Shown here in pieces: positions 30,781-61,778 of a stretch of 64,000 nt of DNA. A model generated the notes under the pieces. It did not search any database and had not been told where the DNA came from. It worked only from the letters and a program-made list of their open reading frames with translations. Source of the DNA: a virus (taxonomy: Duplodnaviria; Heunggongvirae; Uroviricota; Caudoviricetes). The stretch is from IMG/VR virus record IMGVR_UViG_3300017917_003366; one strand, written 5' to 3'. Every line of letters starts with the position of its first letter. Position 1 is the first letter of the stretch. Both the position numbers and the translations under genes were made by a program.

Positions 30781-31016
30781 TGGATTTTAAATTCGGTAGA
30801 GATAATAATGATTTTTCTTTAAAGATTAGAAGAGCTAGAAGATTAAGAGCAGGGTGGACACCCGAGCTTGCACAAGACATTCAAGCTTTTCATAATATTG
30901 ATGCCGAATCAGAACTAGTTAGATTATTAACCGAAGAAATCACGAGACAGGTTGACAGGGAGATTATAAATGAACTTATGAATAAAGATAAATTTGAATT
31001 TAAATTCGGAAGATAA
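30780..31016 (+). CDS. Small protein (78 aa) beginning and ending with an FKFGR motif
   Basis: MDFKFGRDNNDFSL...KDKFEFKFGR. The motif recurs at the start of the next ORF. Confidence 0.4.
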   Translation: MDFKFGRDNNDFSLKIRRARRLRAGWTPELAQDIQAFHNIDAESELVRLLTEEITRQVDREIINELMNKDKFEFKFGR

Positions 31017-31291
31017 TGGGATTGAAGAATTTTAAATTTGGTAGAGATAACTATACAAATGATTTTACACTAACCGATTTTAATCTACCCTTATTAAGAA
31101 TCGCACCCGCAGTTGTGTTTCAACAAACAGAATGGGTGTTTCAATTTGATGAGGGGGAGCCTGTGGTATTTGCTTCACAACAAGAAGAACCCAATCTAAC
31201 AATCACATTAAACAATACAAACCACGCATCAATAGAATTCACAGACAATAACAAAAAATTTAAAATATTCGCAAGGGAGAGACAACAATGA
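31016..31291 (+). CDS. Small protein (91 aa) beginning with NFKFGRDNYTNDFTL
   Basis: Shares the N-terminal FKFGRDN-x-NDF(S/T)L motif with the upstream ORF; the DNA differs by synonymous changes, indicating protein-level conservation. Confidence 0.4.
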   Translation: MGLKNFKFGRDNYTNDFTLTDFNLPLLRIAPAVVFQQTEWVFQFDEGEPVVFASQQEEPNLTITLNNTNHASIEFTDNNKKFKIFARERQQ

Positions 31292-31914
31292 AAATCAGCT
31301 ATGGAATCACGGTATGTAATGAATTAAAGGAAATTAAAACCTTATTACCATTATTAATTGAACACAAAAGAGTTGAGGACGAAATTATAGTCCTGTACGA
31401 TGAGAAAAATGGTAAACAAGAAGTCCTTGATTATCTTTTACCATTTAACAAACTACCCAATGTTCAAACATGGAGAGGAATGGTGTTTGTTAATGACTTC
31501 GCCATTTGGAAAAATAAATTAAATGGATATTGTTCAGGAGATTATATTTTCCAACTCGATGCAGATGAATTGATTACAAAAGAATTGATACAGGATTTAC
31601 CATCTGTAATCGAATCAAATCTTGAGGTTGATTTATTTGTGTTCCCAAGAATCAATACCGTGAAAGGAATTACTGATGACCACATTAAGAGATGGGGATG
31701 GAAAATGGATGAGAAAGGTAGAATCAACTTTCCTGATTGGCAAGGAAGATTGTACAAGAAGGGTTTAAACTGGCATGGAAAGGTTCATGAGAAAATCATC
31801 GGAGCCAAAACATATTCCCTAATGCCTGAGGATGATGGCTATTGTATCATTCACGAAAAGACGATTGAAAGACAAGAAAGACAAAATAATTTATATTCAA
31901 AAATTACTAAGTAA
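31288..31914 (+). CDS. Glycosyltransferase family 2-like
   Basis: N-terminal ISYGITVCNELKEIKTLLP...IIVLYDE resembles the GT2 start (SVIIPTYNE...). Confidence 0.5.
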   Translation: MKISYGITVCNELKEIKTLLPLLIEHKRVEDEIIVLYDEKNGKQEVLDYLLPFNKLPNVQTWRGMVFVNDFAIWKNKLNGYCSGDYIFQLDADELITKELIQDLPSVIESNLEVDLFVFPRINTVKGITDDHIKRWGWKMDEKGRINFPDWQGRLYKKGLNWHGKVHEKIIGAKTYSLMPEDDGYCIIHEKTIERQERQNNLYSKITK

Positions 31915-32669
31915 TGAAATTAATACTAGCAACAGGTTCTGATTTAAACTACCTAAGTAAGATGAGACCTTACTTAAAATCTATAGAATCAAATTCAAAC
32001 TTTGATAAAAACATTTTGGTGTTTGTTGGTGAGGATGAGATACAACTTCCCTTTAAAAATATTGACATAGTTAACTTACCTGTGGGTAGAATTCAATCGT
32101 TGAATAGTAATAAGTGTGTTCAACATGGTGACTTCTTAAATTCTCCGGCGTTTGATTCTATGACTGAAGATGATGATGTTATCATCTATACTGATGGTGA
32201 TATAATCATACAAAGAAACTTGTCTGAAGATGAAATTAAATTCTATAATTCATTCAAAGATGGGGACGTGTATGTTGGATACAACGCATCACCAACAGAT
32301 ACGTTGGCAGATGAGGCGACGAGATTAGGAAAGACGGGTGCAGTTTCACCATACGTGAATATTGGTGTTTGGGGAATAACAAAGGTTTATAACACTGGTG
32401 TTCTTGCCATGAATAAAAAAACATGGGTGAAATTATTAGAGAGATACAACACATTATATCCTCACGTAGAACCTATGTTCTATCATTATGCAAAACAACA
32501 ATGGTTGATTTCATATATCATTGGTACCGACAAAGAGTTTAATGTAATCGAAATGGGTTATGATGTTCATAACCATAAACATTACCCAAGTCCTGTTGGA
32601 ACTTCTCAAGATGAAAATGGAGACGTTTACTTTAATAATAAAAAAGTTCTATTCAAACATAAGTGGTAA
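31914..32669 (+). CDS. Putative nucleotide-sugar-dependent glycosyltransferase (DxD-containing, GT-A-like)
   Basis: IIYTDGDIIIQ (DxD-like). Weak. Confidence 0.35.
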   Translation: MKLILATGSDLNYLSKMRPYLKSIESNSNFDKNILVFVGEDEIQLPFKNIDIVNLPVGRIQSLNSNKCVQHGDFLNSPAFDSMTEDDDVIIYTDGDIIIQRNLSEDEIKFYNSFKDGDVYVGYNASPTDTLADEATRLGKTGAVSPYVNIGVWGITKVYNTGVLAMNKKTWVKLLERYNTLYPHVEPMFYHYAKQQWLISYIIGTDKEFNVIEMGYDVHNHKHYPSPVGTSQDENGDVYFNNKKVLFKHKW

Positions 32670-33541
32670 TGAAATTAATCATTTTTGTCTTTGCTGGTCG
32701 AGAATATTGTATGAATTTACAATTACCATACATTATCAAAATCTTAAATGAGTATCCCGATTCGGAATACCACGTATGGAATTTTGCCAGAAATGAAAAT
32801 GACAACCAATATCTGAACACATTACCAAGTAAACACGATAGGATAAAAATCTTCAATGATTATTATGAAGGACCGAATCCTATAAAAGAATGTACTAAGA
32901 AACCAAACCACATTTGTTATTGTGAAAAATGTAGAACAGGTAAATGGTCTGAACCTTATAAATTCTATTCAAGTGATGAATATTCTGATTGTTTGTTTTT
33001 GAAATTGGATGATGATATTGTTTATATGGATTTAGATGGATTTGGTTCCTACCTAAAAACGATTAAAGACAATCCCGAATGTGTCATTAGTGCCAATGTC
33101 ATAAACAACGGAGTATGTGCATACTTTGACCCAATTATTAAAGAAAAAGTTATATCTAATAGATTAATTTTAAAAGAGGATAAATTTAATAAATGGTTTA
33201 TACTTTGTGTTGATTATAATTTTTTAAACCTATGTCATGATATGTTTTTATCTAATGAGTATACCAAAGTGGAGAATGTGATTGCATTTACTGATAGTAA
33301 AATCAGCATCAACACCATTGGGTTCAACCATAACATAATGTGTGAAGTTGGCGGAATACTTTCAAAATTGGCCGATAAGATACATGATGAAATGGTTTTC
33401 AGTCATCACACAACTGTTTTAATTTATCAAAATTTTATAACATCTCATTTACATTTTAGTGACCAAAATGCTAAGATGTCTGAAGATGTAAAAAAAACAT
33501 ATATTCAAAAGTATAAAGAATTATGCAGTACGATTATCTAA
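32663..33541 (+). CDS. Hypothetical protein, possibly a glycosyltransferase-like DxD protein
   Basis: LKLDDDIVYMDLDG. Weak. Confidence 0.35.
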   Translation: MVMKLIIFVFAGREYCMNLQLPYIIKILNEYPDSEYHVWNFARNENDNQYLNTLPSKHDRIKIFNDYYEGPNPIKECTKKPNHICYCEKCRTGKWSEPYKFYSSDEYSDCLFLKLDDDIVYMDLDGFGSYLKTIKDNPECVISANVINNGVCAYFDPIIKEKVISNRLILKEDKFNKWFILCVDYNFLNLCHDMFLSNEYTKVENVIAFTDSKISINTIGFNHNIMCEVGGILSKLADKIHDEMVFSHHTTVLIYQNFITSHLHFSDQNAKMSEDVKKTYIQKYKELCSTII

Positions 33542-34620
33542 TAGTAGGGACCGGATTCTTCGGTTCCATTTGTGCACATGAATTAACTAAATCAGGTAAG
33601 AAGGTCTTAGTTATTGATTCTCGTAATCACATTGGCGGGAACTGTTATACCGAGAATAAAGATGGTATCAATATTCAAGTATACGGTGCACATATTTTTC
33701 ATACATCAAATAAAGAAGTGTGGGATTGGATTAATCAATTCGCTGAGTTCAATACCTATCGTCACCATGTACTGGCAACATATGATAATGAGATTTACTC
33801 ATTACCATTTAGTATGTTTACATTCAATAAATTGTGGGGTGTTAATTATCCACACGAAGCCCAAGAGAGGATTAAATCACAATCTATCAGTATTGATGAA
33901 CCAACTAACTTAGAGGAGCAAGCAATCAAACTTGTGGGTAAAGATGTTTACGAGAAACTAATCAAAGGTTACACTCATAAACAGTGGATGAAGGACCCAA
34001 AGGAATTACCAAAAGAAATCATTAAACGTTTACCTGTTCGATTCACATGGGACAATAATTATTTCTTTGACAAGTATCAAGGAATCCCAATCGGTGGATA
34101 CACTCAGATATTTGAAAAGTTATTAGAAGGTATCGATGTTCAATTGAACACTAACTACTTTGATGGTAACTTACCTCCACATAAGAAAGTAATTTTCACA
34201 GGACCAATCGATAAGTTCTTTGGATACAAGTATGGTAAGTTAGAATATAAAACGGTTAGGTTTGAGCACGACCACTTGAATCAAATAAACTATCAGGGAG
34301 TACCTGTGATGAACTATACCAACTACGAAGTACCATACACCAGAATTATTGAACATAAACATTTCGAAGGTGTTGATACCAACTCAACATGGATTACACG
34401 TGAATACCCAACACAATACATCCCTGATGTTACCGACCCTTATTATCCGGTGAATGACAAAGAGAATAACGAAATGTTCTCCAAGTACAAAGAAGAAGCC
34501 GAACAGGTAAAAGAATGTGTGTTATTTGGTGGTAGATTGGGTGAGTACAAATACTACGACATGCATCAGGTAATAGAATCGGCACTTAACTTCATTAAAA
34601 AAGAAATCAATGGACATTAG
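33523..34620 (+). CDS. glf: UDP-galactopyranose mutase
   Basis: YDYLIVGTGFFGSICAHELTKSGKKVLVIDSRNHIGGNCYTE...YGAHIFHTSNKEVWDWINQF...YSLPFSMFTFNKLWG closely follows the Glf consensus (FAD-binding GxGxxG plus HIFH block). Confidence 0.85.
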   Translation: MQYDYLIVGTGFFGSICAHELTKSGKKVLVIDSRNHIGGNCYTENKDGINIQVYGAHIFHTSNKEVWDWINQFAEFNTYRHHVLATYDNEIYSLPFSMFTFNKLWGVNYPHEAQERIKSQSISIDEPTNLEEQAIKLVGKDVYEKLIKGYTHKQWMKDPKELPKEIIKRLPVRFTWDNNYFFDKYQGIPIGGYTQIFEKLLEGIDVQLNTNYFDGNLPPHKKVIFTGPIDKFFGYKYGKLEYKTVRFEHDHLNQINYQGVPVMNYTNYEVPYTRIIEHKHFEGVDTNSTWITREYPTQYIPDVTDPYYPVNDKENNEMFSKYKEEAEQVKECVLFGGRLGEYKYYDMHQVIESALNFIKKEINGH

Positions 34621-35713
34621 TTTAGTACTCGCAGTATTCAATAAATTAGATTTAACTAAGGATTGTTATAAAAGAATCCGTGAGATATATCCCGATGCCC
34701 CTTTTGTTATCAGTAGCGGTGGTTCAACAGATGGAACCAAAGAATGGTTAGAATCTTTAGAGGACGATAATCTTTCCTATATCCACGATGACGATAAATT
34801 AGTTTTCTCTGAGAACTACAATGCTGCAATTAAGTTGGTGGATACCGAGAAACTAGTTCTTATTCACAACGATATGGTCATTGGGAGACACTTTCTTGAG
34901 AATTTGGATAGATTACTCACACCAGATACTTTGCTCTCTTATACGACGTTAGAACCACCAATTTTCAAAGGTCATAACAGACCGGGTAAGTTGATAGTGG
35001 ACATGGGTTACGGATTCCATGATTTCAAATGGGAAGAGTTCGACGAGTTTGTTGAGGAGAATAAATCCGATTGTAAAATATATGACGGAGCAGTATTCTT
35101 TATGAGTGGATATAAGAAGATGTTTGAGGATGTTGGATTCTTTGATGGGTTTAGTTTTGTTCCCGCATTTGCTGAGGATGATGACTTCTTAATCAGAGCC
35201 AAACTCAAAGGATATAAACTCAAAACAACCACTTGTGCTATCACATATCACTTTGTTTCTCAAACATCAAGATTCAGTGAAGAATTCAAGAAGGACAGAA
35301 TGAAGTATGAGATTAACTCAAATAGAAACTTCGTCCGTAAATGGGGCATCCCAATTCCAGCATTTAACGAGTTACGTTATTGGGAGGATGATGGATTCAG
35401 ATATAAAACATTTACCATGGGTTTAACCACCCGAAGTAGAGCGAGATTGTTTGAGGTGGAACCATTCTTCGATAAGATTGATTTAGGGATGATTCCTGAG
35501 GATTATTTGGAGAATGAACAGAAGAACACCCGATATGATTTAAGGTCAAAATTCGTCCTTACAGACCTTGTAGATGTGATGGTATATGAAATGAGTCCAA
35601 TGACTGATGAGGATATCTATGTCCTTCAAAAATTACGTCTTTCGATACCTTACTATGAACCGGGTGAATACAAAGTTGGTTCATTAAAAATAGAAATAAA
35701 AAAGGGGGTATAA
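34610..35713 (+). CDS. Glycosyltransferase family 2
   Basis: ISLVLAVFNKLDLTKDCYKRI...SSGGSTDGTKEWL (GT2 N-terminal signature) and LIHNDMV (DxD-like). Confidence 0.55.
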   Translation: MDISLVLAVFNKLDLTKDCYKRIREIYPDAPFVISSGGSTDGTKEWLESLEDDNLSYIHDDDKLVFSENYNAAIKLVDTEKLVLIHNDMVIGRHFLENLDRLLTPDTLLSYTTLEPPIFKGHNRPGKLIVDMGYGFHDFKWEEFDEFVEENKSDCKIYDGAVFFMSGYKKMFEDVGFFDGFSFVPAFAEDDDFLIRAKLKGYKLKTTTCAITYHFVSQTSRFSEEFKKDRMKYEINSNRNFVRKWGIPIPAFNELRYWEDDGFRYKTFTMGLTTRSRARLFEVEPFFDKIDLGMIPEDYLENEQKNTRYDLRSKFVLTDLVDVMVYEMSPMTDEDIYVLQKLRLSIPYYEPGEYKVGSLKIEIKKGV

Positions 35714-35726
35714 AACCCCCTTTAAC
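35696..35726. terminator. Bidirectional terminator hairpin (aaaggggg-tataaaa-ccccttt) at the convergent junction
   Basis: 8-bp stem; the stop codon of the GT2 gene lies in the loop; T/A runs on both sides. Confidence 0.6.
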
Positions 35727-35744: not shown

Positions 35745-36209
35745 TTATTCAGTTGGTTTTTGTACCAACATGAACAATAAGTTATAATCGTCTGTCGTTT
35801 CTCCTACCTTATCTAAATCCTCCATTGTTAGTGGAGTATATTCAATTTCTTTTTCTTCACTCAATAATGCATTGAATTCGTTTTGGAATTCTACGTATTG
35901 TGGATTGAGTTCTCTTGAAATGACTTTATCATTTTCATCTTTTTGTTCGATGAATACTCCGATTTGAATTCCACCTTTACCATCGTCTTCACCGTGCTTT
36001 TGGATAATTTCATCACGGAGGGTTTCAATTGATTTGCGTTCTGCTGCCAATCTATCACCCAATTCACTCAACCAATACTTGGTCTTCAACGGTAATTTAT
36101 GTTTTCTAAATCCGACGAAAACTTCTTTTCCGTTTTGTGGATTCACAAAACCATTAATCTCACTTTCTAATTGTAGAACTTGTCCTAATTTTAATGTTAG
36201 TTTTGCCAT
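35745..36209 (-). CDS. Hypothetical protein (154 aa)
   Basis: ORF. Confidence 0.45.
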   Translation of the reverse strand: MAKLTLKLGQVLQLESEINGFVNPQNGKEVFVGFRKHKLPLKTKYWLSELGDRLAAERKSIETLRDEIIQKHGEDDGKGGIQIGVFIEQKDENDKVISRELNPQYVEFQNEFNALLSEEKEIEYTPLTMEDLDKVGETTDDYNLLFMLVQKPTE

Positions 36210-36262
36210 CTTATCTATTTTATTTTTTCTTTATTATACGAATTATTTTTCAGTTTGTCAAG

Positions 36263-36823
36263 TCAATACCACCAACCTTTACCACTAAATTCCGCAAAAT
36301 CAAATAATAAATTGATTCTGTCTGTGGTCCCGTAATTATTTACTTCATGTTGACGCATATTATTCAATTCAAACATTTGTCCAATCTCGAAGAATCTACG
36401 TTCATCCTCAACAATGTATTCTACTTTATCCCACTCACAAAATAATGGAACATGAATACGATGTGATAGATTATATGAACCCCCAACATCTTTGTGTGAT
36501 TTAATTGATGAACCTGCCGGTAATCGAACCAAAACCGCTCGAACAACATAACCCCAATTATATTCGTGTTCTAATTTTTTTAATAGGGGGTCAATTAGTT
36601 TTTCAAAATCCAATCTTTCATACAATTCATGTTTGGTACCATTGAAATGTCTGAAGTCATTGTCATAGATTATTGCGAGAGTTTTTGATGCACCATGCAT
36701 TGGATTAGCATCTTGTCTCCAAGTGTATCTATCCCACTCATCGGTAGGGATTTCTGAAACCTTGTCCAACCATGGTTGGATATCAACTTTACCGTAATCT
36801 TTGAAATTTTCTTTTATATTCAT
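36263..36823 (-). CDS. Aspartyl/asparaginyl beta-hydroxylase-family cupin (2OG-Fe(II) oxygenase-like)
   Basis: VRLPAGSSIKSHKDVGGSYNLSHRIHVPL...EDERRFFEIGQMFELNNMRQHEVNNYGTTDRINLLFDF matches the Asp_Arg_Hydrox core (HxD...RxHxPL...H). The track start at 36931 is a GTG; the ATG at 36823 gives an ATGA overlap with the upstream gene. Confidence 0.55.
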   Translation of the reverse strand: MNIKENFKDYGKVDIQPWLDKVSEIPTDEWDRYTWRQDANPMHGASKTLAIIYDNDFRHFNGTKHELYERLDFEKLIDPLLKKLEHEYNWGYVVRAVLVRLPAGSSIKSHKDVGGSYNLSHRIHVPLFCEWDKVEYIVEDERRFFEIGQMFELNNMRQHEVNNYGTTDRINLLFDFAEFSGKGWWY

Positions 36824-37824
36824 ACGATAGTAAATAATGCGTAAGTTAACATTAATGCAATCCAAATAATGAGTGCTTTTAGGTATGTCATAAATCCTGT
36901 GTGGAAATACTTTTGACCTATTGGTAAACACTTATGTGATGGTGAAATTAGATATGCCGAATACTCCAATGTGAAAAACAAAACAAAGTACTTCATACCA
37001 AATGCTGCGGTTAGTAAACTAACAATTCCCGCATACTTAGATGACGAACCCAAGAGGAATGATGCAATAAATCCAATCATCGAAACAAGAATGATATTCT
37101 TTGTTGGGATATAATGTTTTATGAATGTTTCAATGTAATCATAATTGGCATTAACTATGTTTCCAAGAATAATAACAAATGCAACAATCACAAGTAATTC
37201 CCAATTAATATAATCCAATAGTTTATACCATGAATTGGAATAACTGATTAGATAGAACGTGAACACAGTAAATGCCAAGAAGTAGTAAGGAGTGAAACAA
37301 CTTATCAGTATTGTACTTAGGAATGGTAGAACAACCAATGTCATGTTCTTTTTGTTTATCGGTTCATCCTTTACTTCAATATCAATTTCGTCATCGTTAA
37401 GTGACATGATATAAAATGTGATGTACAATGCGGTTATCAATAAAAGTGGCCACACATAAGACATGAATGTCATATATGATAACCCCAAGACCGCCATTGG
37501 GATGATTACAGTTTTTTCAAGGGGTGACCATAGATAATAGTGGTGAGTTGCCAAGTAATCTATGATACCAAACTTCTTTCTCTTCTTATTATCTACAGGT
37601 GCAATACTATTCAACATACTGGCAGATAATGCAACTCTACCGGGTATTGGGAGTACCCCACCAAACAATGATACAAGAAAGACAACGGCTTTCTTTGATT
37701 TGATTTTTTGTGTTAGTAACCTAAATAAATCCGTAAGGTATCCTCTTTCTTTGAGGATACCCGTTACGAACATTATTAAAAGTAAATAAACAAGAAACTC
37801 TTGTCCTTTAATTAAAATCTCCAT
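36820..37824 (-). CDS. Polytopic inner-membrane protein (about 9-10 TM segments), function unknown
   Basis: Hydrophobic helices throughout; translationally coupled to both neighbours. Confidence 0.55.
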   Translation of the reverse strand: MEILIKGQEFLVYLLLIMFVTGILKERGYLTDLFRLLTQKIKSKKAVVFLVSLFGGVLPIPGRVALSASMLNSIAPVDNKKRKKFGIIDYLATHHYYLWSPLEKTVIIPMAVLGLSYMTFMSYVWPLLLITALYITFYIMSLNDDEIDIEVKDEPINKKNMTLVVLPFLSTILISCFTPYYFLAFTVFTFYLISYSNSWYKLLDYINWELLVIVAFVIILGNIVNANYDYIETFIKHYIPTKNIILVSMIGFIASFLLGSSSKYAGIVSLLTAAFGMKYFVLFFTLEYSAYLISPSHKCLPIGQKYFHTGFMTYLKALIIWIALMLTYALFTIV

Positions 37825-38774
37825 GCGAAAATTATTGTGCTACGTGACGCTTTAGATTCTTGTGTGAATCCTGGCATCGTTTCGACGGTTAAATAAGCGT
37901 GACCATTAAAACGGTATTGGATTAGCGGTCCGAAATAAACTTCGTTACTTCCACCACCATAATCATTACGGCGATACATTCCACTTACACCTAATGTCAA
38001 ATCATTATTGATGATATGACCATAAGATGCGGTTGATGCGTACTCGGGTTCTCTATCTTCTTTGGTGTCCGCCAAATTACCTTCATAGATAAGGTTTAAA
38101 CCCCAAATACCTTTATTACCGATTCTGTCACCAAGTAATAACTTTGGTTCGATACCCCATCTACCATCTAACATTTTCATTTCATAGTAGATAGTTGGGT
38201 TGCCCCAAATCTTACCCCAATCGGCAAGTGCGTATCTTAATTCCCATGAGAAGCCCCTCCAACTGAAGGTCTTGTTGCCATTTTCACCATCATAAACGGT
38301 ATGAGAATACAGGTCTAATTGTAATCTCTTTCCTAAACCGAAGGTGAATTCATCCCTCATTCTAATTTGGGCCGGACCGTCCCTGCGGTCACGAATGTCA
38401 AACCATTTCTCATACATGACCGAACCTGGTGGGTTCATCACGTAGACCCTAGTTGAAGGGAACATCCTCATTGTACTCCACAAAGGTTGATTGTATGGAC
38501 CTACCTTTGTTTGGAGGGGATATTTCTTTGCAGTTACAATAACAGTTGCCATTTCCAATGGACCTCTAATGGTATCTTCTACCTTTGTTGTGTCCTTGGT
38601 TCTTGCCTGTTCTGAACCCCTACTTATAGCCGAATTGCTGTATTGTGCATTTACAGATGTTGCACCCATCATAACAAGGAGAAACACTAACTTCCCCGTT
38701 TTGTTCCCAACAAACCCAATGATTGTTGAAACAGCGTTGACCAACCAAAATGATGGTCTTGTTGTTGTTTTCAT
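37812..38774 (-). CDS. Outer-membrane beta-barrel protein candidate (320 aa)
   Basis: Signal-peptide-like segment (LVFLLVMMGATSVNA-QY). Gly/Tyr/Trp-rich alternating strands and C-terminal ...IIFAWRF beta-signal. Confidence 0.5.
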   Translation of the reverse strand: MKTTTRPSFWLVNAVSTIIGFVGNKTGKLVFLLVMMGATSVNAQYSNSAISRGSEQARTKDTTKVEDTIRGPLEMATVIVTAKKYPLQTKVGPYNQPLWSTMRMFPSTRVYVMNPPGSVMYEKWFDIRDRRDGPAQIRMRDEFTFGLGKRLQLDLYSHTVYDGENGNKTFSWRGFSWELRYALADWGKIWGNPTIYYEMKMLDGRWGIEPKLLLGDRIGNKGIWGLNLIYEGNLADTKEDREPEYASTASYGHIINNDLTLGVSGMYRRNDYGGGSNEVYFGPLIQYRFNGHAYLTVETMPGFTQESKASRSTIIFAWRF

Positions 38775-38851
38775 TCTTTTTGTTATTAATGAAATTTATG
38801 TGTCAAAGCACCTTACAATAATAACAAAAAATATTCGAATTATAAAATGTT

Positions 38852-39106
38852 TTACTTTTGAAATCCTAACTTTTCCCAAATAATTTTGAAGGGACAAATT
38901 CCTGTCAACGCGGCAAGTGGTAATAGAATTGGTGGTGCCCAATGTAACCAACTTACATTTTCAAATCCCGCTAAACAGTTAGCTATGAACACAACAATCC
39001 CAATTGAAAGGAAAGTCATTCTACCTGATGGGGACACATCCCCTAAATTACATAGTTTTTTCATATGATATTTCTTAAAATAATTGTTAATGAAATTATT
39101 ATCCAC
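38852..39106 (-). CDS. Small membrane protein (84 aa)
   Basis: Two hydrophobic helices. Confidence 0.35.
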   Translation of the reverse strand: MDNNFINNYFKKYHMKKLCNLGDVSPSGRMTFLSIGIVVFIANCLAGFENVSWLHWAPPILLPLAALTGICPFKIIWEKLGFQK

Positions 39107-39393
39107 AAAGTATTAAAAACAATAAGTGTGGGTAATGATTTTTTCATACTTGACCAAATCAAAAGGGACGATGTTAAAAGGGTGAAAAAGTGTAACCACC
39201 AAATCTCCTTACCGAAGATTAACCCCGGTACGATGATGGCGGCTTTAGCCATCCATGCTGCAAATTCAATTACGTTATAATCAGTCCAATAAGATTTGTA
39301 CTTGTACATTAAAATCTTATCCTTTATTCTACTGTAACCAATGAAGTAGAAAAGTAATCCAATAAAAATTGTGTAGCTAATAATGTTAATCAT
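39061..39393 (-). CDS. Membrane protein (110 aa, 3 TM segments)
   Basis: Hydrophobic helices. Confidence 0.4.
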   Translation of the reverse strand: MINIISYTIFIGLLFYFIGYSRIKDKILMYKYKSYWTDYNVIEFAAWMAKAAIIVPGLIFGKEIWWLHFFTLLTSSLLIWSSMKKSLPTLIVFNTLWIIISLTIILRNII

Positions 39394-39559
39394 CGATTCG
39401 TTTTAATAATTCTTCTTTTATTTCTTCCGCAGGTGTACCCTTATGGAATTGAAATGGTTTATTACATCTACATTTAAATTGTACATAATCGTCAACCAAT
39501 TCTTTATATTTTAATTCTAAAAATTCAATTCGTTCTTTTAACTGATTAATCTCTTCCAT
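39386..39559 (-). CDS. Small coiled-coil/CxC peptide (57 aa) between the halogenase and membrane genes
   Basis: ATG at 39559..39557 and TAA at 39388..39386. MEEINQLKERIEFLELKYKELVDDYVQFKCRCNKPFQFHKGTPAEEIKEELLKRIDD. Not in the track (shorter than 60 aa). Confidence 0.25.
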   Translation of the reverse strand: MEEINQLKERIEFLELKYKELVDDYVQFKCRCNKPFQFHKGTPAEEIKEELLKRIDD

Positions 39560-41081
39560 ATTTCTCCCTTAATTGTTCGTATAAGTTTGGTAATAGTTCG
39601 GTTAACAATTTCGTTTCGTATTTAATTAAATCTATTTTCTTTTCCATGTATGGTAGATAGTTTTCTTTGATTGAAACTCTTGGGGTTCTACCAAATGGAT
39701 TGTTGTAGAAGAATCCGGTTCCCCATAACCATTGGAACCAATTCACCGAACCAAAGATTCTACCTCTGAATAGTTCCTCCGCCGGTCTCACCGCCATAAT
39801 CTGTAACTTCTGCATCAAAGTATCAGGAATGAATGATTTGGTTTTACAATCCCTCCAAAACGGAGTATCATCTCTTTGACATGTTAGATAGTGAGCGTGA
39901 ATGAAATCACGAATGTCAATCATCATATCAATATTATCTCTATTGATTGTGTCGATTGTTTGAGATGTGTAGTTTAATTCATTCTTCTCAAGTTCAGTTG
40001 CCAATGTCGACATGATTCCTTGGAAGGTTGAGATTCCTGTTGATTCCATTGGTTCGGCGAATCCACCGGCCAATCCACATGCAACAACATTCTTAACGGC
40101 AACTCTTTCTCGAGTACCAACTCTCATGTTGATTTTTAACACATCACCTTCATACCCACCATGGAATTCTCTAAACTCTTTTTCCGCTTCTTCATCTGTA
40201 ATGTACTTAGATGAATAAACATAACCCGAACCGATTCTATCATAGATTGGTGTTTTCCATAACCAACCACTATTCATCGTATATAATCTACTGTACGGTT
40301 CCATTTCAGAATGTTTATCCTTATATGGAATTGGTGCAGCAATTGCTTTATCACAGAACAATGATTCCTCAAATGAAATGAATGGTTCACCCATCACCGC
40401 TTCAATTAATGCTCCTTTAAAACCAGAACAATCAATGTAAAGGTCTGCTTTAAATTTCTGTTGGTCCCATAATTTAATATCTTGAATGAAACCGAAGTCG
40501 TCGAGTTTAACTTGTTTCAAATCACCCTCAACAAACTTTACTCCATTAGGGATACAAACTTTCTTCTTGATTACTTCAGCGAATTTGACAGCATCAAAGT
40601 TGTAACTGTAAACGCTTTCAATATCACTATAGGTTGGGATGTAACTTAATTCATCATCAACGGTCGGTGATAGATTCTGAAGTGCTAAAGTTGGGGAAAG
40701 GAACAACTCATTTATTTTATGTGGGTCGTTCTCATGATATTTTAAAAGGTATTGTAGAAGATTTGTTTTCTGATTAATGTACAATGTTTGTTCGTTCTCC
40801 ACCAATACAAAGTGGTCACCTTTTTTTGACCAATTCATAAATCTTCCTCCGTATTTGTAAACTGCGGAAGATTCTTCCATCCAATCTTTTTCTTCCAAAC
40901 CAATAAACTTCATAAAGGAGTGAAGACTTGCGGTTGAACTTTCACCCACCCCAATGGTTCCAATTTTATTGGAATGGATTAATGTGATATCGAGTTTATC
41001 TTTAAATACTTTTGATAGTAATGCCGCGGTCATGATACCCGCGGTACCGCCACCGACGATTAATATTTTTTTAACTTCCAT
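39546..41081 (-). CDS. Flavin-dependent halogenase, tryptophan-halogenase family
   Basis: KILIVGGGTAGIMTAALLSK (GxGxxG FAD site). ITLIHSNKIGTIGVGESST. GWLWKTPIYDRIGSGYVYSSKYITDEEAEKEF (WxWxIP-like motif plus the GYVYSS block). ATG verified. Confidence 0.8.
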   Translation of the reverse strand: MEVKKILIVGGGTAGIMTAALLSKVFKDKLDITLIHSNKIGTIGVGESSTASLHSFMKFIGLEEKDWMEESSAVYKYGGRFMNWSKKGDHFVLVENEQTLYINQKTNLLQYLLKYHENDPHKINELFLSPTLALQNLSPTVDDELSYIPTYSDIESVYSYNFDAVKFAEVIKKKVCIPNGVKFVEGDLKQVKLDDFGFIQDIKLWDQQKFKADLYIDCSGFKGALIEAVMGEPFISFEESLFCDKAIAAPIPYKDKHSEMEPYSRLYTMNSGWLWKTPIYDRIGSGYVYSSKYITDEEAEKEFREFHGGYEGDVLKINMRVGTRERVAVKNVVACGLAGGFAEPMESTGISTFQGIMSTLATELEKNELNYTSQTIDTINRDNIDMMIDIRDFIHAHYLTCQRDDTPFWRDCKTKSFIPDTLMQKLQIMAVRPAEELFRGRIFGSVNWFQWLWGTGFFYNNPFGRTPRVSIKENYLPYMEKKIDLIKYETKLLTELLPNLYEQLREKYGRD

Positions 41082-41090: not shown

Positions 41091-41822
41091 TTATCCGTTT
41101 GAAGGTGGAACTGCATCGAAACGTGAGTCACCCGGAATGATTGTTCTTTCTACTGGTAAAACCACATTGATGATATCATCTCCTTCTGCGGTCTTTAACT
41201 GATTAACGTATGTTTCTTCGTCAACAAATAACTGAGTAACTTGAGTATTGTAATTGTCAACTGCGTTGAGTACTAACGGTACTAAATCCGCAACAGTTGT
41301 ATTCTTAACGGTAGCTAACGCAGATAATGTCGGCGTGTCAACAGTGTTGTCGGCAAGATACATTCTTGCTTCATCCTCCTGTAACTTCCAAGTCGCTCTT
41401 TCTTGTGGAGTTTTGTTTGCTGATAAGGTTTCAAATTTGTTTTTAAAATAATTTCTAACCATTCTAATTCTCAACCATCTGATTGCTTCGTATCTGTCGA
41501 TAACTTCAGCATCGGTCATCGGTCTTTTGATTCTAATACCTTTTAATTTATCAAAATCTTCATCAAAGAATTCTTCTTCTTGTCCACTTGAGTAACCCTT
41601 ATACAATTTAGCAGAATCTTTGGTTGCCACATAAAATGCCAAACCATCAATTACTTGTTGTGGACATAATTGAATACTGTACTTATTAAGTGTTGCTAAC
41701 GATATTAAATTAATATCGGGTATTGAAGCAAAGAAGGTATTGTCAGCATATCTTACAATTTCTAATCCGCTTAAATTTGGTTGTGGTTCTCCTTGTGGGA
41801 CATTAAATGCGATGTAATCCAT
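41091..41822 (-). CDS. Hypothetical protein (243 aa)
   Basis: ORF. Confidence 0.45.
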   Translation of the reverse strand: MDYIAFNVPQGEPQPNLSGLEIVRYADNTFFASIPDINLISLATLNKYSIQLCPQQVIDGLAFYVATKDSAKLYKGYSSGQEEEFFDEDFDKLKGIRIKRPMTDAEVIDRYEAIRWLRIRMVRNYFKNKFETLSANKTPQERATWKLQEDEARMYLADNTVDTPTLSALATVKNTTVADLVPLVLNAVDNYNTQVTQLFVDEETYVNQLKTAEGDDIINVVLPVERTIIPGDSRFDAVPPSNG

Positions 41823-42478
41823 TATTGTTGTTGTTTAAAATCAATTTCTTTTATTTGACCTGATTGTAATTGTTCTTGGTCACCTACCATATCTAAATAT
41901 TTTACTTGACCCTTTACTTCGTTCGCAATCTTAGTTGTTTCAACTAAAGCCGCTCTAAAATTTTCAGGTCCCATCTGCATCAATGCTTCAAGGTTACCAA
42001 CCCCAATACGTCCAACGGTTAAAATCTCAAGAGCCGATTGTGTTGCCAATCGTTTAATCCAATAATCATGTTCATGAGCTTCTTGATTACTCATCATTTC
42101 ATTAACATCATATTGTGCTCTGAACTCACTTTCAATCTTTTGTAGATTTTCTATTTCAGATATAATTCTCGTTCTATTTCTTAAAATATTTTCATATGTG
42201 ATATCATTTTTCTTAATATCAAATTCATATAATTTCTTTTGTGCCGGAGACGTTTCACTCTCCATTTTTTCAAATAATAAATCTCTTTCTAATCTATTTT
42301 TTTCAACTTCTAAGTTGATTTGTTCGGCGTTCGTGTAACGAACTTCTAATTCCAATAAAATTTGTTTAAACTGTCGGTATGGATTGTGTTGGGAATTAAC
42401 AACAAAATGTTTGATTTGAAACTCCGACATGGAGAAAACCATATCCTTATACTCTTTTGGTAACAACTCTTCTTTCAT
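41822..42478 (-). CDS. Hypothetical coiled-coil protein (218 aa)
   Basis: ORF with heptad-like segments. Confidence 0.45.
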   Translation of the reverse strand: MKEELLPKEYKDMVFSMSEFQIKHFVVNSQHNPYRQFKQILLELEVRYTNAEQINLEVEKNRLERDLLFEKMESETSPAQKKLYEFDIKKNDITYENILRNRTRIISEIENLQKIESEFRAQYDVNEMMSNQEAHEHDYWIKRLATQSALEILTVGRIGVGNLEALMQMGPENFRAALVETTKIANEVKGQVKYLDMVGDQEQLQSGQIKEIDFKQQQ

Positions 42479-45086: not shown

Positions 45087-46067
45087 TTAAATTGGACTCC
45101 ATATACCTGAAGCAGATGACAATGACCTTGGAGCATCTGCAATGGCAACTGCACTATCGGTATCGTAATAAACTTTATCGCTAAATGCGTTTTGATTTAA
45201 AATAGTTTGGTATCCACCTGCTAAGTAACCATGGTTTTGTCCCATAACTCCTGTGTTCTCACAGTTTGGTATGGACTGACTTCCATAATTCATTGTCCAA
45301 GTAGATATTATATTTCTATATTGACGTAAACTATTATCAATATGTGAACTTACACTTGTAAGGTAAAATTTACCTTTTTTACTGTTTACTCCCTTTTCGA
45401 GGGAATTGCCGGGTAATCCTAAACTACCAGGGGAATTTGTTGTTGGTTGGACTCTCCACGTTTCACTAGCAAATGGATATATTCTTGTTTGGTTCGCACC
45501 TGACTGATAATGATATCCATATTCTCTATCAAACCACCCAACTGAGTGGTCTGCGGTTCCAATATTTGCATCAGTTGTATTTGTGAACGTGTCGGTGGCA
45601 AAGGTTAAAATATCATAACCCGTGGAACCATTACCACAAGTATATGCTTTAGTTCCGAATGGAACACCTGTTGATTCATAACCAACTCCTTGTTGAATTG
45701 TTGATGGTGAACCCCCACAATAACCTCTGTTACCAATTGTGGTCATCACTTCTGTAGCCAAATTTATTTTATCATTTCCACAATACCCATTTTGATTATT
45801 TAGAAAATAATAACCGTGAGTATGGGCAGATGCCCAACCACCATATTTGTTTGGGTAACTTAAAGTACTTGAGCTTGTTCCCCAAGCGTCGGTGGCATAT
45901 TTTAATGTGGTTATTGCTGTCCAAACAGAACTTCCAATATAACCACCACCAATAAGTCCGCGAATTAGAATTAAACCAAGTTCATAATGGTCATCACGCA
46001 AGGTCTTTATGTCACGACCTTGTACTGTAAGATTTCCGGTGAAATTGATGTTACCATTAACTTTCAT
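45087..46067 (-). CDS. Putative receptor-binding/tail-fibre protein, paralog A (326 aa)
   Basis: MKVNGNINFTGNLTV... followed by about 6 blocks with GY..GG / TDxW periodicity. Ends NHGYLAGGY...YDTDSAVAIADAPRSLSSASGIWS. Confidence 0.5.
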   Translation of the reverse strand: MKVNGNINFTGNLTVQGRDIKTLRDDHYELGLILIRGLIGGGYIGSSVWTAITTLKYATDAWGTSSSTLSYPNKYGGWASAHTHGYYFLNNQNGYCGNDKINLATEVMTTIGNRGYCGGSPSTIQQGVGYESTGVPFGTKAYTCGNGSTGYDILTFATDTFTNTTDANIGTADHSVGWFDREYGYHYQSGANQTRIYPFASETWRVQPTTNSPGSLGLPGNSLEKGVNSKKGKFYLTSVSSHIDNSLRQYRNIISTWTMNYGSQSIPNCENTGVMGQNHGYLAGGYQTILNQNAFSDKVYYDTDSAVAIADAPRSLSSASGIWSPI

Positions 46068-49000
46068 TATTTATTTCCTTTGAGTTCGTCGATTTCCTTT
46101 TTAAGGTCTTTTATCGCTTCAATTAATAAAGCTGTTAATCTTCCATAAGATACGGAATCAGGACGACCTTCTGTATCGAATCCGACAGCTTCTGGTAAAA
46201 TTTTTGCCACTTCTTCCGCAATAACCCCCGCTTCTTTCTGTTCGTTATTAATTTTGGTATAGGTTACACCACTCAATTGAAGAACTTTCTCCAAACCATT
46301 TTCAATTTGAACGATATCTTTCTTGTATCGGATAGATGAGTTCTCGGTGATTCTACCGTTAACAACCAAGTTGTTATAGATTAATGCTCCTCCGAAGTAT
46401 AAGTGAGATGATGACGTACTTTGGTCACCGTAGAAGAAGAATTCGGCACCGTAGTTGATTCCATCTTCGGTTGGGTTGTTATCGGTAATCTGCATGTAAC
46501 AATCCATTGGTGTACCATCTTGTAAACCGAATATACTTGAAACGAACGCAGTTGCGTACATGTAATCGTAGTAAGGATTCACATACACACCACCTGTACC
46601 ATAAACAGAGTTACCTGAACCCCACAATACTTGGTATGTTGAGTTACTATCGTTGTTGTAGTTAATGGTTACTTGTGATGCAGAACCCGCACTAGTTGCG
46701 TAGTTTACAGATTGTGAACCAATGTTACTTGTAGTGATAGCACTTGATGCCGGCTGATAGTAAGAACCATGTTGACCATCTAATAAATCGGCATCAAGTC
46801 CAGAACTTGCACCGTCATTACCTGCGTGCCATACCGTGTTACCTCTAATGGTTACCGCTCCTGTTGAACCGTCAATTTTAAAGTCATTCTGACCGAATCT
46901 ACCCATTACAACAGTATAATCGGCAAATGCTTCGATAACGGGTAAACCTGAGATTGTGTTAACCGAGAAGATACTATCTGTCATATCATCGGTTACAGTA
47001 AACAATCTACCGTTCACACCATCAACCGCAACAACTTCTGCGTTTGCTCCACTACTATTGAATCTAACAGTACCTAAGTTTGAATAACCATTTGGATTTA
47101 AGTAATAGTTGGTATCACTAATATCATAAAATATTGGTGCCCTTACTGATTGGTCACTATTCCAACTGCCGTCATTTGCCGCCCAAGAACCCCAAGTGTT
47201 TGAACTGCTTAGGAAACCGATTCTACTACTATTACAATGGATACGACGAGTTGTTTCGTCGGTATCTGTCATGTAGATATCTGAAGATGTACCACTACCA
47301 ACAGTTAAAGCTCCAAATATCTGAACATTATAACTATTATCCATTCTTAAACCCCAGTTTCCACCTGAGTTTAAGAAACCAATTTGATTTGATGAGTTCG
47401 CATATACATAACCTCTTAATGCATTCACATGTCCACCGGTGTAGAATCTAATTGATGATTCGCTATTTGTTGATGAGACATCCCAAAATCCATTTGATTG
47501 GGATGATAAGTGCATCGTTGTGGTTTCATTGTATAAACCTGTATTGGAATTATCATTTCTAAACCATGCGGTGGTGTATGTATTTGAGAATCTAACAGTA
47601 CTTGATGTTGATACTCGTTGGTTTTCCAAAGGTTGGAATCGAGCATCTGATTCGGTTTCTGTAAAATACCTATCATCATGTGTATGTGATGATTCTGCAT
47701 ATTTTCCATCAATGTCAACTGTTACGGTGCCTCCATCATTACGTGTAAGTGTGATGATACCATTACTTGTATTAAATGATGCCGATGTTACATAATAGTT
47801 TGTATCGGTATATGATGTAATCCATCCAGGGTTTGTAGAAACACTACCATCAGCCATTAAGAACTGAGAAGAACTTCCTCCCGTCTTAACGAATGCAGTT
47901 GCTCTGATGTTACCCGTTACCGCTAACTTGTAACCTGAAACTGAAGTGTTACCCATTCCAATTTCACCGGTTGTTGCGATATAGAAATCGTTTTGATTGT
48001 AACGACCCATGATTACCCTGTAATCTGAGAACGCTTCAATTACAGGAACACCTGCAATTGTATTAACTGAGAATAAACTGTCACTTAAATCATCTGTGAT
48101 TGTGAACAATCTACCATTAACACCATCAACTGTGAATACTTCAGTTCCACTTGCGGTACTGTTTAATTTAACAGTTGCCAAGTTTGAGGTACTTGCCGGA
48201 TTTAAGAAGTATGTCGTATTGTCAAAATCATAGTAAGTTGAACCGTAGAATAATGGTGCCCCACTATTTCTTTCAATAATATTTGCCCAACCACTACCAG
48301 CACTATTTAATATTCTCCAGTTACCCGCATTTTGAATACCACCTGTACCAATTTCAAGTAAACTATCAATGTATACTTGTTTACTGTTATAGTTTCTAAT
48401 CCATGTAGTATCAGTCATGTACCATCCACCACCGTATGTTTCACTATACCAACCGGTATTCCCTGTACTTCTAAACCATCCTGATGAAACAAATGAACCC
48501 GCATATACATAATCTGAAGATGGATTCACGTAAACACCTGCGGTTCCGTAAACCGCGTTTCCTGAACCCCACAATAATTGATATGTTGAGTTACTATCGT
48601 TGTTGTAACTAATTGCCCCAAGATACGTTCCCGCTTCTTGGTATTTTCCATCAATATCTACCGTGTAAGTTCCTCCATCATTTCTTGAGAATGTGATAAT
48701 ACCATTGCTTGTATTAAATGATGCGCTCGTTGTATAATAGTTTGTATCAACATATGATGTAATATAACCATTCGGATTGGATGCGGGATAGTAATATGAA
48801 CCATGTTGACCGTCAAGTAAATCGGCATCAAGTGTTGACCCCGAACCTTGATGAGATATCTGTGCCGGATGGACCATACCAACACCTTCGGTTCCTTCAT
48901 TATCGGAGTCACTAAATGATAAACCTGTTAGATGGAATCTCCCAACCTGCACTGTGAATCTAATAGCAGTATAATCATCTAAACCAGATGCCACAAATGT

Positions 49001-60642: not shown

Positions 60643-61778
60643 TATTTCTTTGAACCATAGTAGATTGTGTCTTTATTAATTCTTTCTCTCCAAGGGTCCA
60701 AAACCACACTTCCACTCGGGAAGATAGTATCATTAAAAACATTTCTATGTCCTAATAAATAAATAGCAGGACCATTTATTTCATCGTACCTAACCTCATT
60801 AATGAAACTACCTATAAGAATGGAATAAGAACCATCAATATATTCGACACCGGGTTTATAGCTCTTACCCATAATAACCACAGATAAACCATGTTCAATA
60901 GATAAATCAATTAATCGATTGGCAATGTTTCTTGCTTGTTTTTCCCTTGATGTCATAATCGCATCAAATAAATCATAACCCAAGCCCAATCTTTGTGCCA
61001 TATATCTCAATGCAATATTATCACGTGGGTGACAAGAACCTCCGTCTCCCATCCCCGCTTTCATATAAGCCGGTCCCATGATTCTATATGTACTTCTTTC
61101 AAGTGCACCGGTCACCACATCAGTATTCATATTTCCATTTAATTCAGCCACATCTTGAATCATATTGACAATTGAAATCTTTGCCGATATAAATGTGTTG
61201 TAGAATATTTTAATCGCCTCAGCATCATCCCATGTACCGATTTCATATCTTGTTTGTGGTGATATAATTGTTTGATAGAAATCCTTTAAGATTTTAGCGT
61301 CAGTTGTTTCTGAACCATCTTCTGTACCAATAATCACCATCTCAGGATTAACCATATCGTTTTTAACGGTACCCATCGCAATTAGATATGGATTATAGAT
61401 GAACCTATAGTTTTCAACCAACGGAATAAACTCCCTACGAGTAGTACCAGGTAAAACTGTGGATATTAAAACAACTAGCTGTTGCTTGTTAGTATATTGA
61501 TTGATTTCTGAAAGTATGTTTTTAACTATACTGTAATCAAAATCCTTTGGTGGTAGATGTGATGTTGGTTGTTTACCGTCATATAATGGGTCGTGGGGAG
61601 TAGGTACAGCAATAAAGATTAAATCTTTATCCTTACACACTTCCTCAATTGTACTCACCATATTAAAATTACCTGGCGTAACATTATTCACATCATAACC
61701 TTCAACAAAATGTTTTTCTGCCATGACCTCGGAAACCTCTTTACCAAGTTTTCCAACACCAATAAATCCTATTTTCAT
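60642..61778 (-). CDS. Nucleotide-sugar dehydrogenase (UDP-glucose/GDP-mannose dehydrogenase family)
   Basis: N-terminal Rossmann MKIGFIGVGKLG and catalytic-Cys motif GMGDGGSCHPRDNIAL (family GxGGxCxPKD). Confidence 0.7.
   Translation of the reverse strand: MKIGFIGVGKLGKEVSEVMAEKHFVEGYDVNNVTPGNFNMVSTIEEVCKDKDLIFIAVPTPHDPLYDGKQPTSHLPPKDFDYSIVKNILSEINQYTNKQQLVVLISTVLPGTTRREFIPLVENYRFIYNPYLIAMGTVKNDMVNPEMVIIGTEDGSETTDAKILKDFYQTIISPQTRYEIGTWDDAEAIKIFYNTFISAKISIVNMIQDVAELNGNMNTDVVTGALERSTYRIMGPAYMKAGMGDGGSCHPRDNIALRYMAQRLGLGYDLFDAIMTSREKQARNIANRLIDLSIEHGLSVVIMGKSYKPGVEYIDGSYSILIGSFINEVRYDEINGPAIYLLGHRNVFNDTIFPSGSVVLDPWRERINKDTIYYGSKK

Follow-up and report, generated by a model that had tools for sequence, protein, structure and literature searches.

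A halogenase and a cupin hydroxylase flank an outer-membrane barrel and a DUF401 permease in a large freshwater phage: a possible modular tailor-and-transport island

The 64,000-nucleotide (nt) stretch of DNA analyzed here (IMG/VR record IMGVR_UViG_3300017917_003366, hereafter the window) stems from a large freshwater phage and carries, on the minus strand between positions 36263 and 41081, a compact block of genes in which two putative oxidative tailoring enzymes are combined with two envelope proteins. According to the list of open reading frames (ORFs) of the window, this block consists of seven genes and not of eight as stated in the original prediction, which had otherwise given coordinates and strand of the ORFs correctly. 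In the order of transcription, these are genes for a tryptophan-halogenase-like protein of 511 amino acids (aa) (39546-41081), for three short proteins of 57 aa (39386-39559), 110 aa (39061-39393) and 70 aa (38852-39064), for an outer-membrane protein (OMP, 320 aa, 37812-38774), for a polytopic membrane protein of the DUF401 family (334 aa, 36820-37824) and for a cupin-type hydroxylase (186 aa, 36263-36823). The 70-aa ORF and the cupin gene had been listed with GTG starts as ORFs of 84 aa (38852-39106) and 222 aa (36263-36931), respectively. In both cases an internal ATG appears the more likely start, at 39064 and at 36823, where it gives an ATGA overlap with the preceding stop codon, in the latter case that of the DUF401 gene. 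The junctions from halogenase to cupin then comprise overlaps of 14 and 8 nt, an ATGA, a gap of 77 nt, an overlap of 13 nt and a second ATGA, in agreement with the tight coupling proposed earlier.

The assignment of the first gene to the tryptophan halogenases is borne out by profile searches. Residues 5-457 of the protein correspond to profile positions 1-444 of 458 in PF04820 (E=6.8e-110, 368.5 bits, cut-off 21), and phrog_2928 is matched as well. The protein aligns end to end with solved tryptophan halogenases, i.e., Th-Hal (5lv9, E=2e-83), VirX1 (6qgm, E=6e-71), RebH and PrnA, with its C-terminal 80 residues aligning loosely with Th-Hal, and it is 33-36% identical to the enzymes of cyanophages. 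The GxGxxG motif for binding of flavin adenine dinucleotide is represented by G10-G-G-T-A-G15, the WxWxIP motif is present as GWLWKTP with Ile replaced by Thr, and GYVYSS is present. Both members of the catalytic Lys/Glu pair are found: Lys76 in AVYKYGG aligns with the lysine of Th-Hal ATYKLAV, i.e., the PrnA K79 position, which is that of the chloramine lysine, and Glu346 in EPMESTG is the equivalent of PrnA E346. The GxGxxG and WLWKTP motifs, Lys76 and Glu346 are invariant across six phage homologues, and the protein is thus predicted to be a catalytically intact flavin-dependent enzyme of the tryptophan type.

The protein encoded by the last gene of the block had been described as an Asp/Asn beta-hydroxylase-family cupin with an HxD...H motif, and this description stands. 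Its match to PF05118 lies above the cut-off (E=1.8e-11, 44.5 bits, cut-off 22.6) and covers only profile positions 75-155 of 157. H110-x-D112, H159 and R169, the latter being the basic residue for the carboxylate of 2-oxoglutarate (2OG), are invariant in six homologues with identities of 49-88%. Because of this invariance the protein, which we assign to the Asp/Asn beta-hydroxylase family of Fe(II)/2-oxoglutarate dioxygenases, is predicted to be active. The lipid A hydroxylase LpxO (NF033391, E=0.002) is the sole NCBIfam model touched by the cupin. An identity as LpxO was rejected, as the match scores 17.3 bits with a cut-off of 500 and the 186-aa protein has neither a hydrophobic segment nor a membrane anchor. 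Halogenase and cupin both lack a signal peptide and should therefore act in the cytoplasm.

For the polytopic protein, the earlier reading as an inner-membrane protein is corroborated by a match to PF04165 (DUF401; E=1.9e-10, 41.1 bits, cut-off 24) together with a weaker one to PF03600 (CitMHS; E=7e-5), and relatives of the protein are annotated as PF04165 with or without PF03600. It further matches phrog_14035 (E=1e-84) and is predicted to be an inner-membrane permease of the DUF401/IT superfamily. From typical members of the DUF401/TIGR00529 family it differs by an N-terminus that is about 60 residues shorter than the DUF401 profile and by a score for TIGR00529 (E=1e-14, 54.4 bits) far under the cut-off of 378.4. 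A structure modeled from a shallow alignment of sequences 75-100% identical has a predicted local distance difference test (pLDDT) value of 61.5, and its top three Foldseek matches are LaINDY and VcINDY (DASS family) and YdaH (AbgT family) with E=0.05-0.15. As the model is of low confidence, these fold matches are hints only. They agree with the IT superfamily, to which the CitMHS family also belongs, and carry no information about the substrate. A literature search for "DUF401" retrieved only unrelated DUF401x families, and we know of no DUF401 member with an established substrate.

The OMP had been described as a beta-barrel ending in FAWRF, and its AlphaFold model (pLDDT 85.5) is indeed a 12-stranded barrel with this C-terminus. 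The protein starts with a signal peptide (cleavage site VNA/Q), followed at residues 74-82 by the sequence EMATVIVTA that resembles a TonB box. In Pfam and PHROG the OMP found no match. The nearest structural similarity of the model is to the 12-stranded channels of the COG4313/Phenol_MetA_deg type (PDB 4rl8) and to FapF (PDB 5o65), the solved chains of which are only 9-13% identical to the OMP. The phage protein itself does not match PF13557 (Phenol_MetA_deg), which is matched weakly by eight of 30 members of its family (best E=1.4e-5). This family, which comprises 355 clusters at 50% identity, differs from COG4313 and FapF in its own signatures, QPRWT..RRFP.TR.YV, E.RYALADWGKIWGNPTLY and a C-terminal GWEF, as well as in the TonB-box-like motif and in a tonB neighbor in bacteria of the Planctomycetes-Verrucomicrobia-Chlamydiae (PVC) group. 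To our knowledge, neither such a motif nor such a neighbor has been reported for COG4313 or FapF. After the signal peptide the family keeps the pattern E.P.V.V.G (EMATVIVTA in the window), in which V80 is at least 90% conserved and whose resemblance to a TonB box was judged by eye.

An alternative identity of the OMP as a TonB-dependent transporter was considered and rejected. Transporters of this family possess 22 strands and a plug domain, whereas the OMP has 12 strands, no plug and no match to PF07715 or PF00593, and it is therefore not a member of that family. What it shares with them is the TonB-box-like strand motif after the signal peptide, the presence of tonB beside cellular homologues and the possibility of being swapped, in the same genomic slot, for a 590-aa protein that resembles a TonB receptor (see below).

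Homologues of the OMP in cellular genomes were obtained with an alignment-based query of genome contigs, a scan with the single OMP sequence having yielded nothing. They occur in metagenome-assembled genomes (MAGs) of Bacteroidota at 57% identity and in Planctomycetota, Verrucomicrobiota and some Gammaproteobacteria at 31-43% identity. In one of the Bacteroidota MAGs (locus L012; loci compared in this study are given as L numbers), the gene follows that for a 1467-aa protein with a C-terminus that we take to be a sorting domain for type IX secretion, and the contig also carries genes that look like ordinary housekeeping ones. In 35 of 80 cellular loci, the OMP gene is immediately followed, in the same orientation, by a recurrent cluster of ORFs, and all three members of this cluster that were scanned match TonB_C (PF03544, E=1e-21 to 1e-27). 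Divergent genes for a histidine kinase and a sigma-54 response regulator are located upstream in 23 of the 80 loci. Examples are Chthoniobacter flavus Ellin428 (L085:4735-9495), L046, L047, L025 and about 30 other loci from Planctomycetota and Verrucomicrobiota. The cellular proteins may constitute a family of small, plug-less TonB-coupled channels.

To place the block in context, proteins encoded by the DUF401, OMP, cupin and halogenase genes were used as queries, which led to approximately 90 related phage contigs of up to 323 kb that were compared in a tblastn matrix. The OMP-DUF401 pair together with the following 154-aa gene (35745-36209 on the minus strand of the window, next after the cupin gene) is present in nearly all of these contigs. 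The two genes of the pair always overlap by 13 nt, with the same OMP end (8013) and DUF401 start (8001) recurring over 72 IMG/VR loci anchored on DUF401. The halogenase is restricted to a minority, i.e., the window, L004-9, L096, L097, L152, L138, L151, L144, L251-253 and L258, and is found solely in loci that also hold the cupin. Conversely, the cupin in its trimmed form occurs in exactly the halogenase-bearing loci wherever both positions are covered. Its gene invariably sits between those for DUF401 and the 154-aa protein, as a precise indel of about 565 bp relative to halogenase-free backbones, and the minimal form of the arrangement is halogenase-OMP-DUF401-cupin (L007). The block had been described as one eight-gene operon. 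Gene order is indeed conserved in relatives, and at the same time the run is a mosaic rather than a fixed operon: only OMP and DUF401 are constant and form its core, halogenase and cupin are an optional pair with one member upstream and the other downstream of this core, and the small ORFs come and go.

How this mosaic is built is apparent from a comparison of the halogenase-positive L097 with the halogenase-free L103. Identity between the two amounts to 82% across OMP-DUF401 and to 86% across 6.5 kb further downstream, with a clean cupin-sized gap between the homologous stretches and no homology upstream of the OMP gene. At the DNA level, the halogenase-positive backbones each have a different nearest neighbor among the halogenase-free ones, and the halogenase-positive loci are located at five separate places on a neighbor-joining tree of DUF401 calculated without bootstrap support. 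Halogenase and cupin are therefore best described as separate indels on either side of the OMP-DUF401 pair that are inherited strictly together. That two separate indels flanking a conserved pair share one inheritance is the strongest argument that the two enzymes would work together. The genes for phrog_1604 (243 aa) and phrog_1409 (218 aa) proteins, which join the island to the tail-fibre module (41091-42478, minus strand), also co-vary with the enzyme cassette, since they are 48-85% identical to those of the window in halogenase-positive loci and 21-32% identical in halogenase-free ones.

In most relatives, the slot upstream of OMP is occupied by genes for a radical S-adenosylmethionine (SAM) protein, a 346-aa protein and a methyltransferase (Methyltransf_24), in some cases joined by a 2OG oxygenase of family PF13759. 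This alternative cassette is exemplified by L103:4277-6967 and is also found in L091, L101, L112, L116, L143 and others. Its radical SAM protein (PF04055) bears the CxxxCxxC motif, and the 346-aa protein is without a family match. In two lineages the 346-aa protein is fused to the methyltransferase (L135:2161-3825 and L192:6307-7992), and the two therefore probably act together.

The outer-membrane slot itself is exchangeable. In nine loci (L120:6226-7998, L096:6197-7996, L108, L119, L129-131, L148 and L149), a protein of 590-600 aa stands in place of the 12-stranded OMP directly upstream of DUF401. One of them, L096, has both halogenase and cupin and, apart from the replacement, is a sibling of L097. 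The larger protein keeps the first ~46 residues of the OMP, i.e., signal peptide and start. It further contains IELKEVVVVGG, which is similar to a TonB box, includes SINGIRVNNG, a stretch reminiscent of a plug, and ends in LKYNF. Between residues 63 and 134 it matches a protein from an Emticicia plasmid that is annotated as a TonB-dependent receptor (E=1e-5). As this match over 72 residues is the only support, we use the term TonB-receptor-like tentatively.

Of the short ORFs announced in the original prediction, all three are present, two encoding membrane proteins and one a protein with a CxC motif, while the 84-aa ORF is more likely one of 70 aa as outlined above. Each is conserved in some relatives and hence probably a gene, and none is constant among them. 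The 57-aa protein is soluble, with a coiled-coil-like N-terminus and the CxC motif, and is without a family match. Its gene overlaps the halogenase stop by 14 nt, and homologues with 51-85% identity are found only in some halogenase-positive loci. It is dispensable, being absent or truncated in L007, L004, L138 and L144, all of which contain halogenase and cupin. L144 and L253 retain a truncated remnant of 20 codons, and this remnant form is present in the closest relative. Residues 42-51 (DDYVQFKCRC) agree with the part [DN]-x4-[FY]-x-C-x-C of the Asx-hydroxylation consensus of epidermal growth factor domains, the first Cys of which is missing. This is the sole such match in a six-frame translation of the window, and the L097 homologue does not keep the aromatic residue. 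The 110-aa protein has about four hydrophobic segments as judged by eye. Homologues 74-93% identical are encoded directly upstream of OMP in halogenase-positive loci and also in three halogenase-free ones (L101, L112 and L113), such that it can be regarded as a recurrent, optional partner. The 70-aa protein, a two-helix membrane protein, has homologues (76-94% identity) only in some halogenase-positive loci. It matches nothing in Pfam, NCBIfam or PHROG, and a reading by eye as DUF2892/YgaP-like found no support from any profile.

Beyond the immediate relatives, 74 halogenase-bearing viral contigs with 29-38% halogenase identity were inspected. Four of these (L191, L192, L194 and L226) also encode DUF401 (E=1e-62). 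In L192:3624-17416 (IMGVR_UViG_3300020731_000012), a Syn9-like island of same-strand genes comprises a phrog_1409-like gene, six 2OG oxygenases, the fusion of the 346-aa protein and methyltransferase, two halogenases, DUF401 and a 197-aa barrel of the PF13505 type, in this order, and the other three contigs are organized likewise. The halogenase of this second lineage is only 33% identical to that of the window, and its barrel is not homologous to the OMP. In L208 and L210, a cluster of halogenase, dUTPase-fold and 2OG-oxygenase genes ends in a homologue of the 110-aa ORF (E=6e-21). A phrog_1409-like gene lies 3-4 kb upstream of the halogenase gene in 11 distant viral loci. DUF401 is also found close to phrog_1409 and phrog_1458 genes in cyanophage S-H25 (L001:3006-7017) and Ralstonia phage RP12 (L002:4317-7038), in the latter with a DUF401 start overlapping the phrog_1458-like gene by 8 nt, which hints at an older link between DUF401 and the tail-fibre-adjacent module.

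With regard to its genomic surroundings, the block had been placed upstream of the tail-fibre module. Along the direction of transcription it is downstream: a 3373-aa ORF and two phrog_1417 proteins (tail fibre) are followed by phrog_1409, phrog_1604 and then the block. The 3373-aa ORF is a single one (46067-56188, minus strand) and presumably encodes a giant tail fibre; its equivalent in L004 contains a Peptidase_S74 domain. Behind the block and the 154-aa gene follows a convergent plus-strand glycosyltransferase cluster (28178-35713). It includes a phrog_9677 gene which we take to encode a UDP-galactopyranose mutase, no function being named for phrog_9677. As genes for a Nol-like carbamoyltransferase and a UDP-glucose dehydrogenase are located at 58972-61778 on the minus strand, sugar-metabolism genes are present on both sides of the tail-fibre/accessory block. 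Relatives hold different sets of such genes, including epimerases and an Asn-synthase-like gene, which makes this another variable surface-glycan region.

Scans for sigma-70-type promoters (34 sites in the window vs. 30.6 expected) and for terminators (6 vs. 4.0) were at chance level, so that transcription units are not definable from them. A promoter-like TTGACA-17-TATAAT with 12 of 12 consensus positions (36233-36261, minus strand), situated between the cupin stop and the 154-aa gene, is the sole perfect match in the window, and at least one such match occurred in 12 of 100 shuffled sequences. As weak evidence it suggests a likely 3' limit of the block. A sigma-70 consensus would be odd for a host from the Bacteroidota. 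After the 154-aa gene, where the plus-strand glycan cluster converges, a strong hairpin is followed by a T-run (35701-35723, minus strand).

Neither the DNA of the block nor the OMP and cupin proteins found a match among 50,697 phage records. In the thymidylate synthase gene, 148 bp (24793-24940) are 90% identical to Flavobacterium phages vB_FspM_immuto, and apart from this stretch the first 25 kb of the window gave no megablast match to deposited phages. This similarity, together with the cleavage sites VNA/Q and SFG/Q, which in our understanding fit the "Q rule" of the Bacteroidota, points to a member of this phylum as the probable host.

The statement that no known phage function explains the combination of genes was too strong. 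Pelagimyophages have an aspartyl/asparaginyl beta-hydroxylase among their core genes (PMC7029224), prnA and asparaginyl beta-hydroxylases have been listed among cyanomyovirus genes (PMC3037559), and VirX1 from cyanophage Syn10 is a characterized viral halogenase that prefers iodide and accepts a broad range of substrates (PMC8407142). In cyanophage Syn9, ten dioxygenases and two halogenases form a cluster (Iyer et al., 2010, PMC2938197). Outer-membrane barrels encoded by phages are frequent in BFVD, and on the basis of these precedents each component is known from phages. The island of Syn9 (gp41-gp54) resembles the block in that halogenase and Fe/2OG oxygenase genes lie on one strand after genes for tail fibres and their assembly, and the halogenase is homologous to VirX1. 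On the other hand, Syn9 has two halogenases and up to ten oxygenases of the PF13759, PF13640 and JmjC types instead of one halogenase and one PF05118 cupin, and it is devoid of the channel and permease pair that the enzymes of the window flank. Moreover, Syn9 and Syn10 infect cyanobacteria, to which the host of the window phage probably does not belong, and the halogenase of the window is nearer to bacterial tryptophan halogenases such as Th-Hal than to VirX1.

Bacterial counterparts exist as well. In alpha- and gamma-proteobacteria, Iyer et al. (2010, PMC2938197) described conserved neighborhoods in which between one and three genes for tryptophan halogenases are grouped with those for a 2OG dioxygenase of the JmjC or the classical type, for a TonB-class receptor and for SapC, and predicted that their product is a halogenated metabolite similar to siderophores. 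A theme of halogenase, dioxygenase and TonB-linked outer-membrane protein is thus already known from bacteria, and the locus described here is a variant of such clusters and not an unprecedented system. The likeness extends to a Lys-bearing flavin halogenase, a hydroxylase of the HxD Fe/2OG type and a TonB-linked protein of the outer membrane, to a sporadic, mobile distribution and to the predicted tailoring and uptake of a small amino-acid-derived metabolite. The differences are that the locus resides in a phage, that its dioxygenase belongs to PF05118 and not to JmjC, that the outer-membrane part in this lineage is usually a 12-stranded barrel and not a 22-stranded receptor, and that an IT-superfamily DUF401 permease is added. 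No window protein matched SapC (PF07277) in Pfam, and a siderophore-type TonB receptor is not encoded in the window, a receptor-like protein filling the OMP slot in only the nine relatives mentioned.

Taken together, a combination of tailoring and transport, as envisaged in the original prediction, remains the best reading of the locus. We favor, tentatively and at slightly less than an even chance, a modular "tailor and transport" island in which cytoplasmic tailoring enzymes are coupled to a two-membrane route for a small molecule. In such an accessory island at the end of the run of tail-fibre genes, the 12-stranded OMP channel and the translationally coupled DUF401 permease would offer a small solute a path across both membranes, most likely in the form of TonB-energized uptake, and interchangeable enzymes would be plugged in around this pair. 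Halogenase and cupin would halogenate and hydroxylate one and the same compound, aromatic or derived from an amino acid, and the OMP-DUF401 pair would carry either this compound or what is made from it. A more far-reaching version, a complete energized import-and-tailor pathway within a virus, in which a 12-stranded TonB-dependent channel of a new class and DUF401 import a small molecule (or halide and co-substrate) that swappable cassettes convert, is in our opinion unlikely.

Several observations weigh against tailoring coupled to transport. Most relatives keep OMP and DUF401 in the absence of halogenase and cupin. DUF401 is missing from 70 of the 74 distant halogenase loci and the window-type OMP from all 74, and cyanophages S-H25 and S-CAM4 as well as Ralstonia phage RP12 have a solitary DUF401. 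None of the cellular OMP loci has a halogenase, DUF401 or cupin (PF05118) gene beside that for the OMP, which argues against an origin of the four-gene set from a cellular operon. The TonB box of the OMP is only a motif, and the 590-aa protein has no match to Plug or TonB-dependent receptor families in Pfam, where nothing is found even at E values up to 10, nor to sequences in the PDB. The model of DUF401 is poor, and the DUF401 tree lacks bootstrap values. Finally, the region is a known kind of accessory-gene hot spot, and co-location may therefore reflect tolerance of insertions.

This last point forms the basis of the rival that survives best, although we consider it somewhat unlikely: OMP-DUF401 would be self-contained, with a function in uptake or in the envelope, halogenase and cupin would be a separate pair of enzymes resembling those of cyanophages, and the two would be neighbors only since the end of the tail-fibre operon tolerates insertions. 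It would account for the many loci in which the pair lacks the two enzymes and the slot holds radical SAM, 346-aa protein, Methyltransf_24 and sometimes a 2OG oxygenase, for halogenase islands that are usually free of DUF401 and OMP, for the solitary DUF401 of cyanophages and RP12, and for the halogenase/2OG island of Syn9, which directly follows the tail-fibre genes in the same position and has no transporter. It does not readily explain, however, why halogenase and cupin flank the OMP-DUF401 pair instead of adjoining each other, with overlapping start and stop codons, why a second lineage with so distant a halogenase and a non-homologous OMP again combines DUF401 and an OMP with halogenases and 2OG oxygenases, and why the 110-aa membrane ORF recurs in a third halogenase cluster.

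Envelope remodeling or superinfection exclusion appears improbable. According to this explanation, the cupin would hydroxylate an envelope lipid or protein in the manner of LpxO or OlsC, the OMP would change the cell surface, and the block would alter receptors together with the glycosyltransferases. LpxO as the cupin's only NCBIfam match, the convergent glycosyltransferase and phrog_9677 cluster that the block abuts, the additional sugar genes at 58972-61778 and the frequency of phage-encoded outer-membrane barrels are all in line with it. Yet the cupin reaches only about 17 of the 500 bits required for LpxO and is not anchored in the membrane, halogenases are not known to take part in envelope chemistry, and the OMP is a channel-type barrel whose cellular homologues are linked to tonB. 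Furthermore, the phage looks large and of the lytic type, and exclusion at a late stage would probably be of little benefit.

Very improbable, too, is a modification of virion proteins, with halogenase and hydroxylase acting on Trp and on Asp/Asn of the tail fibres or of neighboring structural proteins, even though the block directly follows the tail-fibre genes, the cassette co-varies with phrog_1409 and phrog_1604, and tail-collar and Gly-rich proteins of phages have been noted as predicted substrates of beta-hydroxylases encoded by linked genes (PMC2938197). Such a role would leave the channel and permease pair between the enzymes unexplained, the Asx-hydroxylation consensus does not occur in the window save for the partial, non-conserved match in the dispensable 57-aa ORF, and characterized relatives of the halogenase act on small molecules (PMC8407142). 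The weakest rival, because no small ORF is conserved along with the enzymes, is the earlier suggestion of a pathway for a ribosomally synthesized and post-translationally modified peptide, in which a small ORF would encode a precursor that is halogenated, hydroxylated and exported via permease and OMP; it is prompted by the short ORFs between halogenase and OMP and by the D-x4-F-x-C-x-C of the 57-aa protein and is scarcely credible, being largely refuted by the distribution of these ORFs, as the 57-aa ORF is absent or truncated in several enzyme-positive loci and its aromatic position is lost in L097, the 110-aa and 70-aa proteins are hydrophobic membrane proteins, and the minimal conserved form in L007 contains no small ORF at all.

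VirX1 and other flavin halogenases from viruses are of value as biocatalysts. The island described here provides a tractable system for comparison, in which one channel and permease backbone is combined either with a halogenase/hydroxylase pair or with a radical SAM/methyltransferase set, and in which the outer-membrane component takes the form of a 12-stranded barrel, of a TonB-receptor-like protein or, in another lineage, of a barrel of the eight-stranded type. Of particular interest are the strict co-inheritance of two enzymes across a conserved transporter pair, the exchange of the outer-membrane component and a barrel family that is widespread, has no name and may be coupled to TonB. Should enzymes and transporters not cooperate, the locus would represent one more accessory-gene hot spot behind tail fibres, ordinary for large aquatic phages. 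If they do, the transported solute would point to the substrate of the halogenase and DUF401 would gain a function, and the barrel family encoded beside tonB in Planctomycetota, Verrucomicrobiota and Bacteroidota would be a candidate for a new TonB-coupled channel. Were the complete import-and-tailor pathway to prove true, it would reveal the first function for DUF401 and the first family of plug-less TonB-coupled channels and would give viral halogenases a physiological context.

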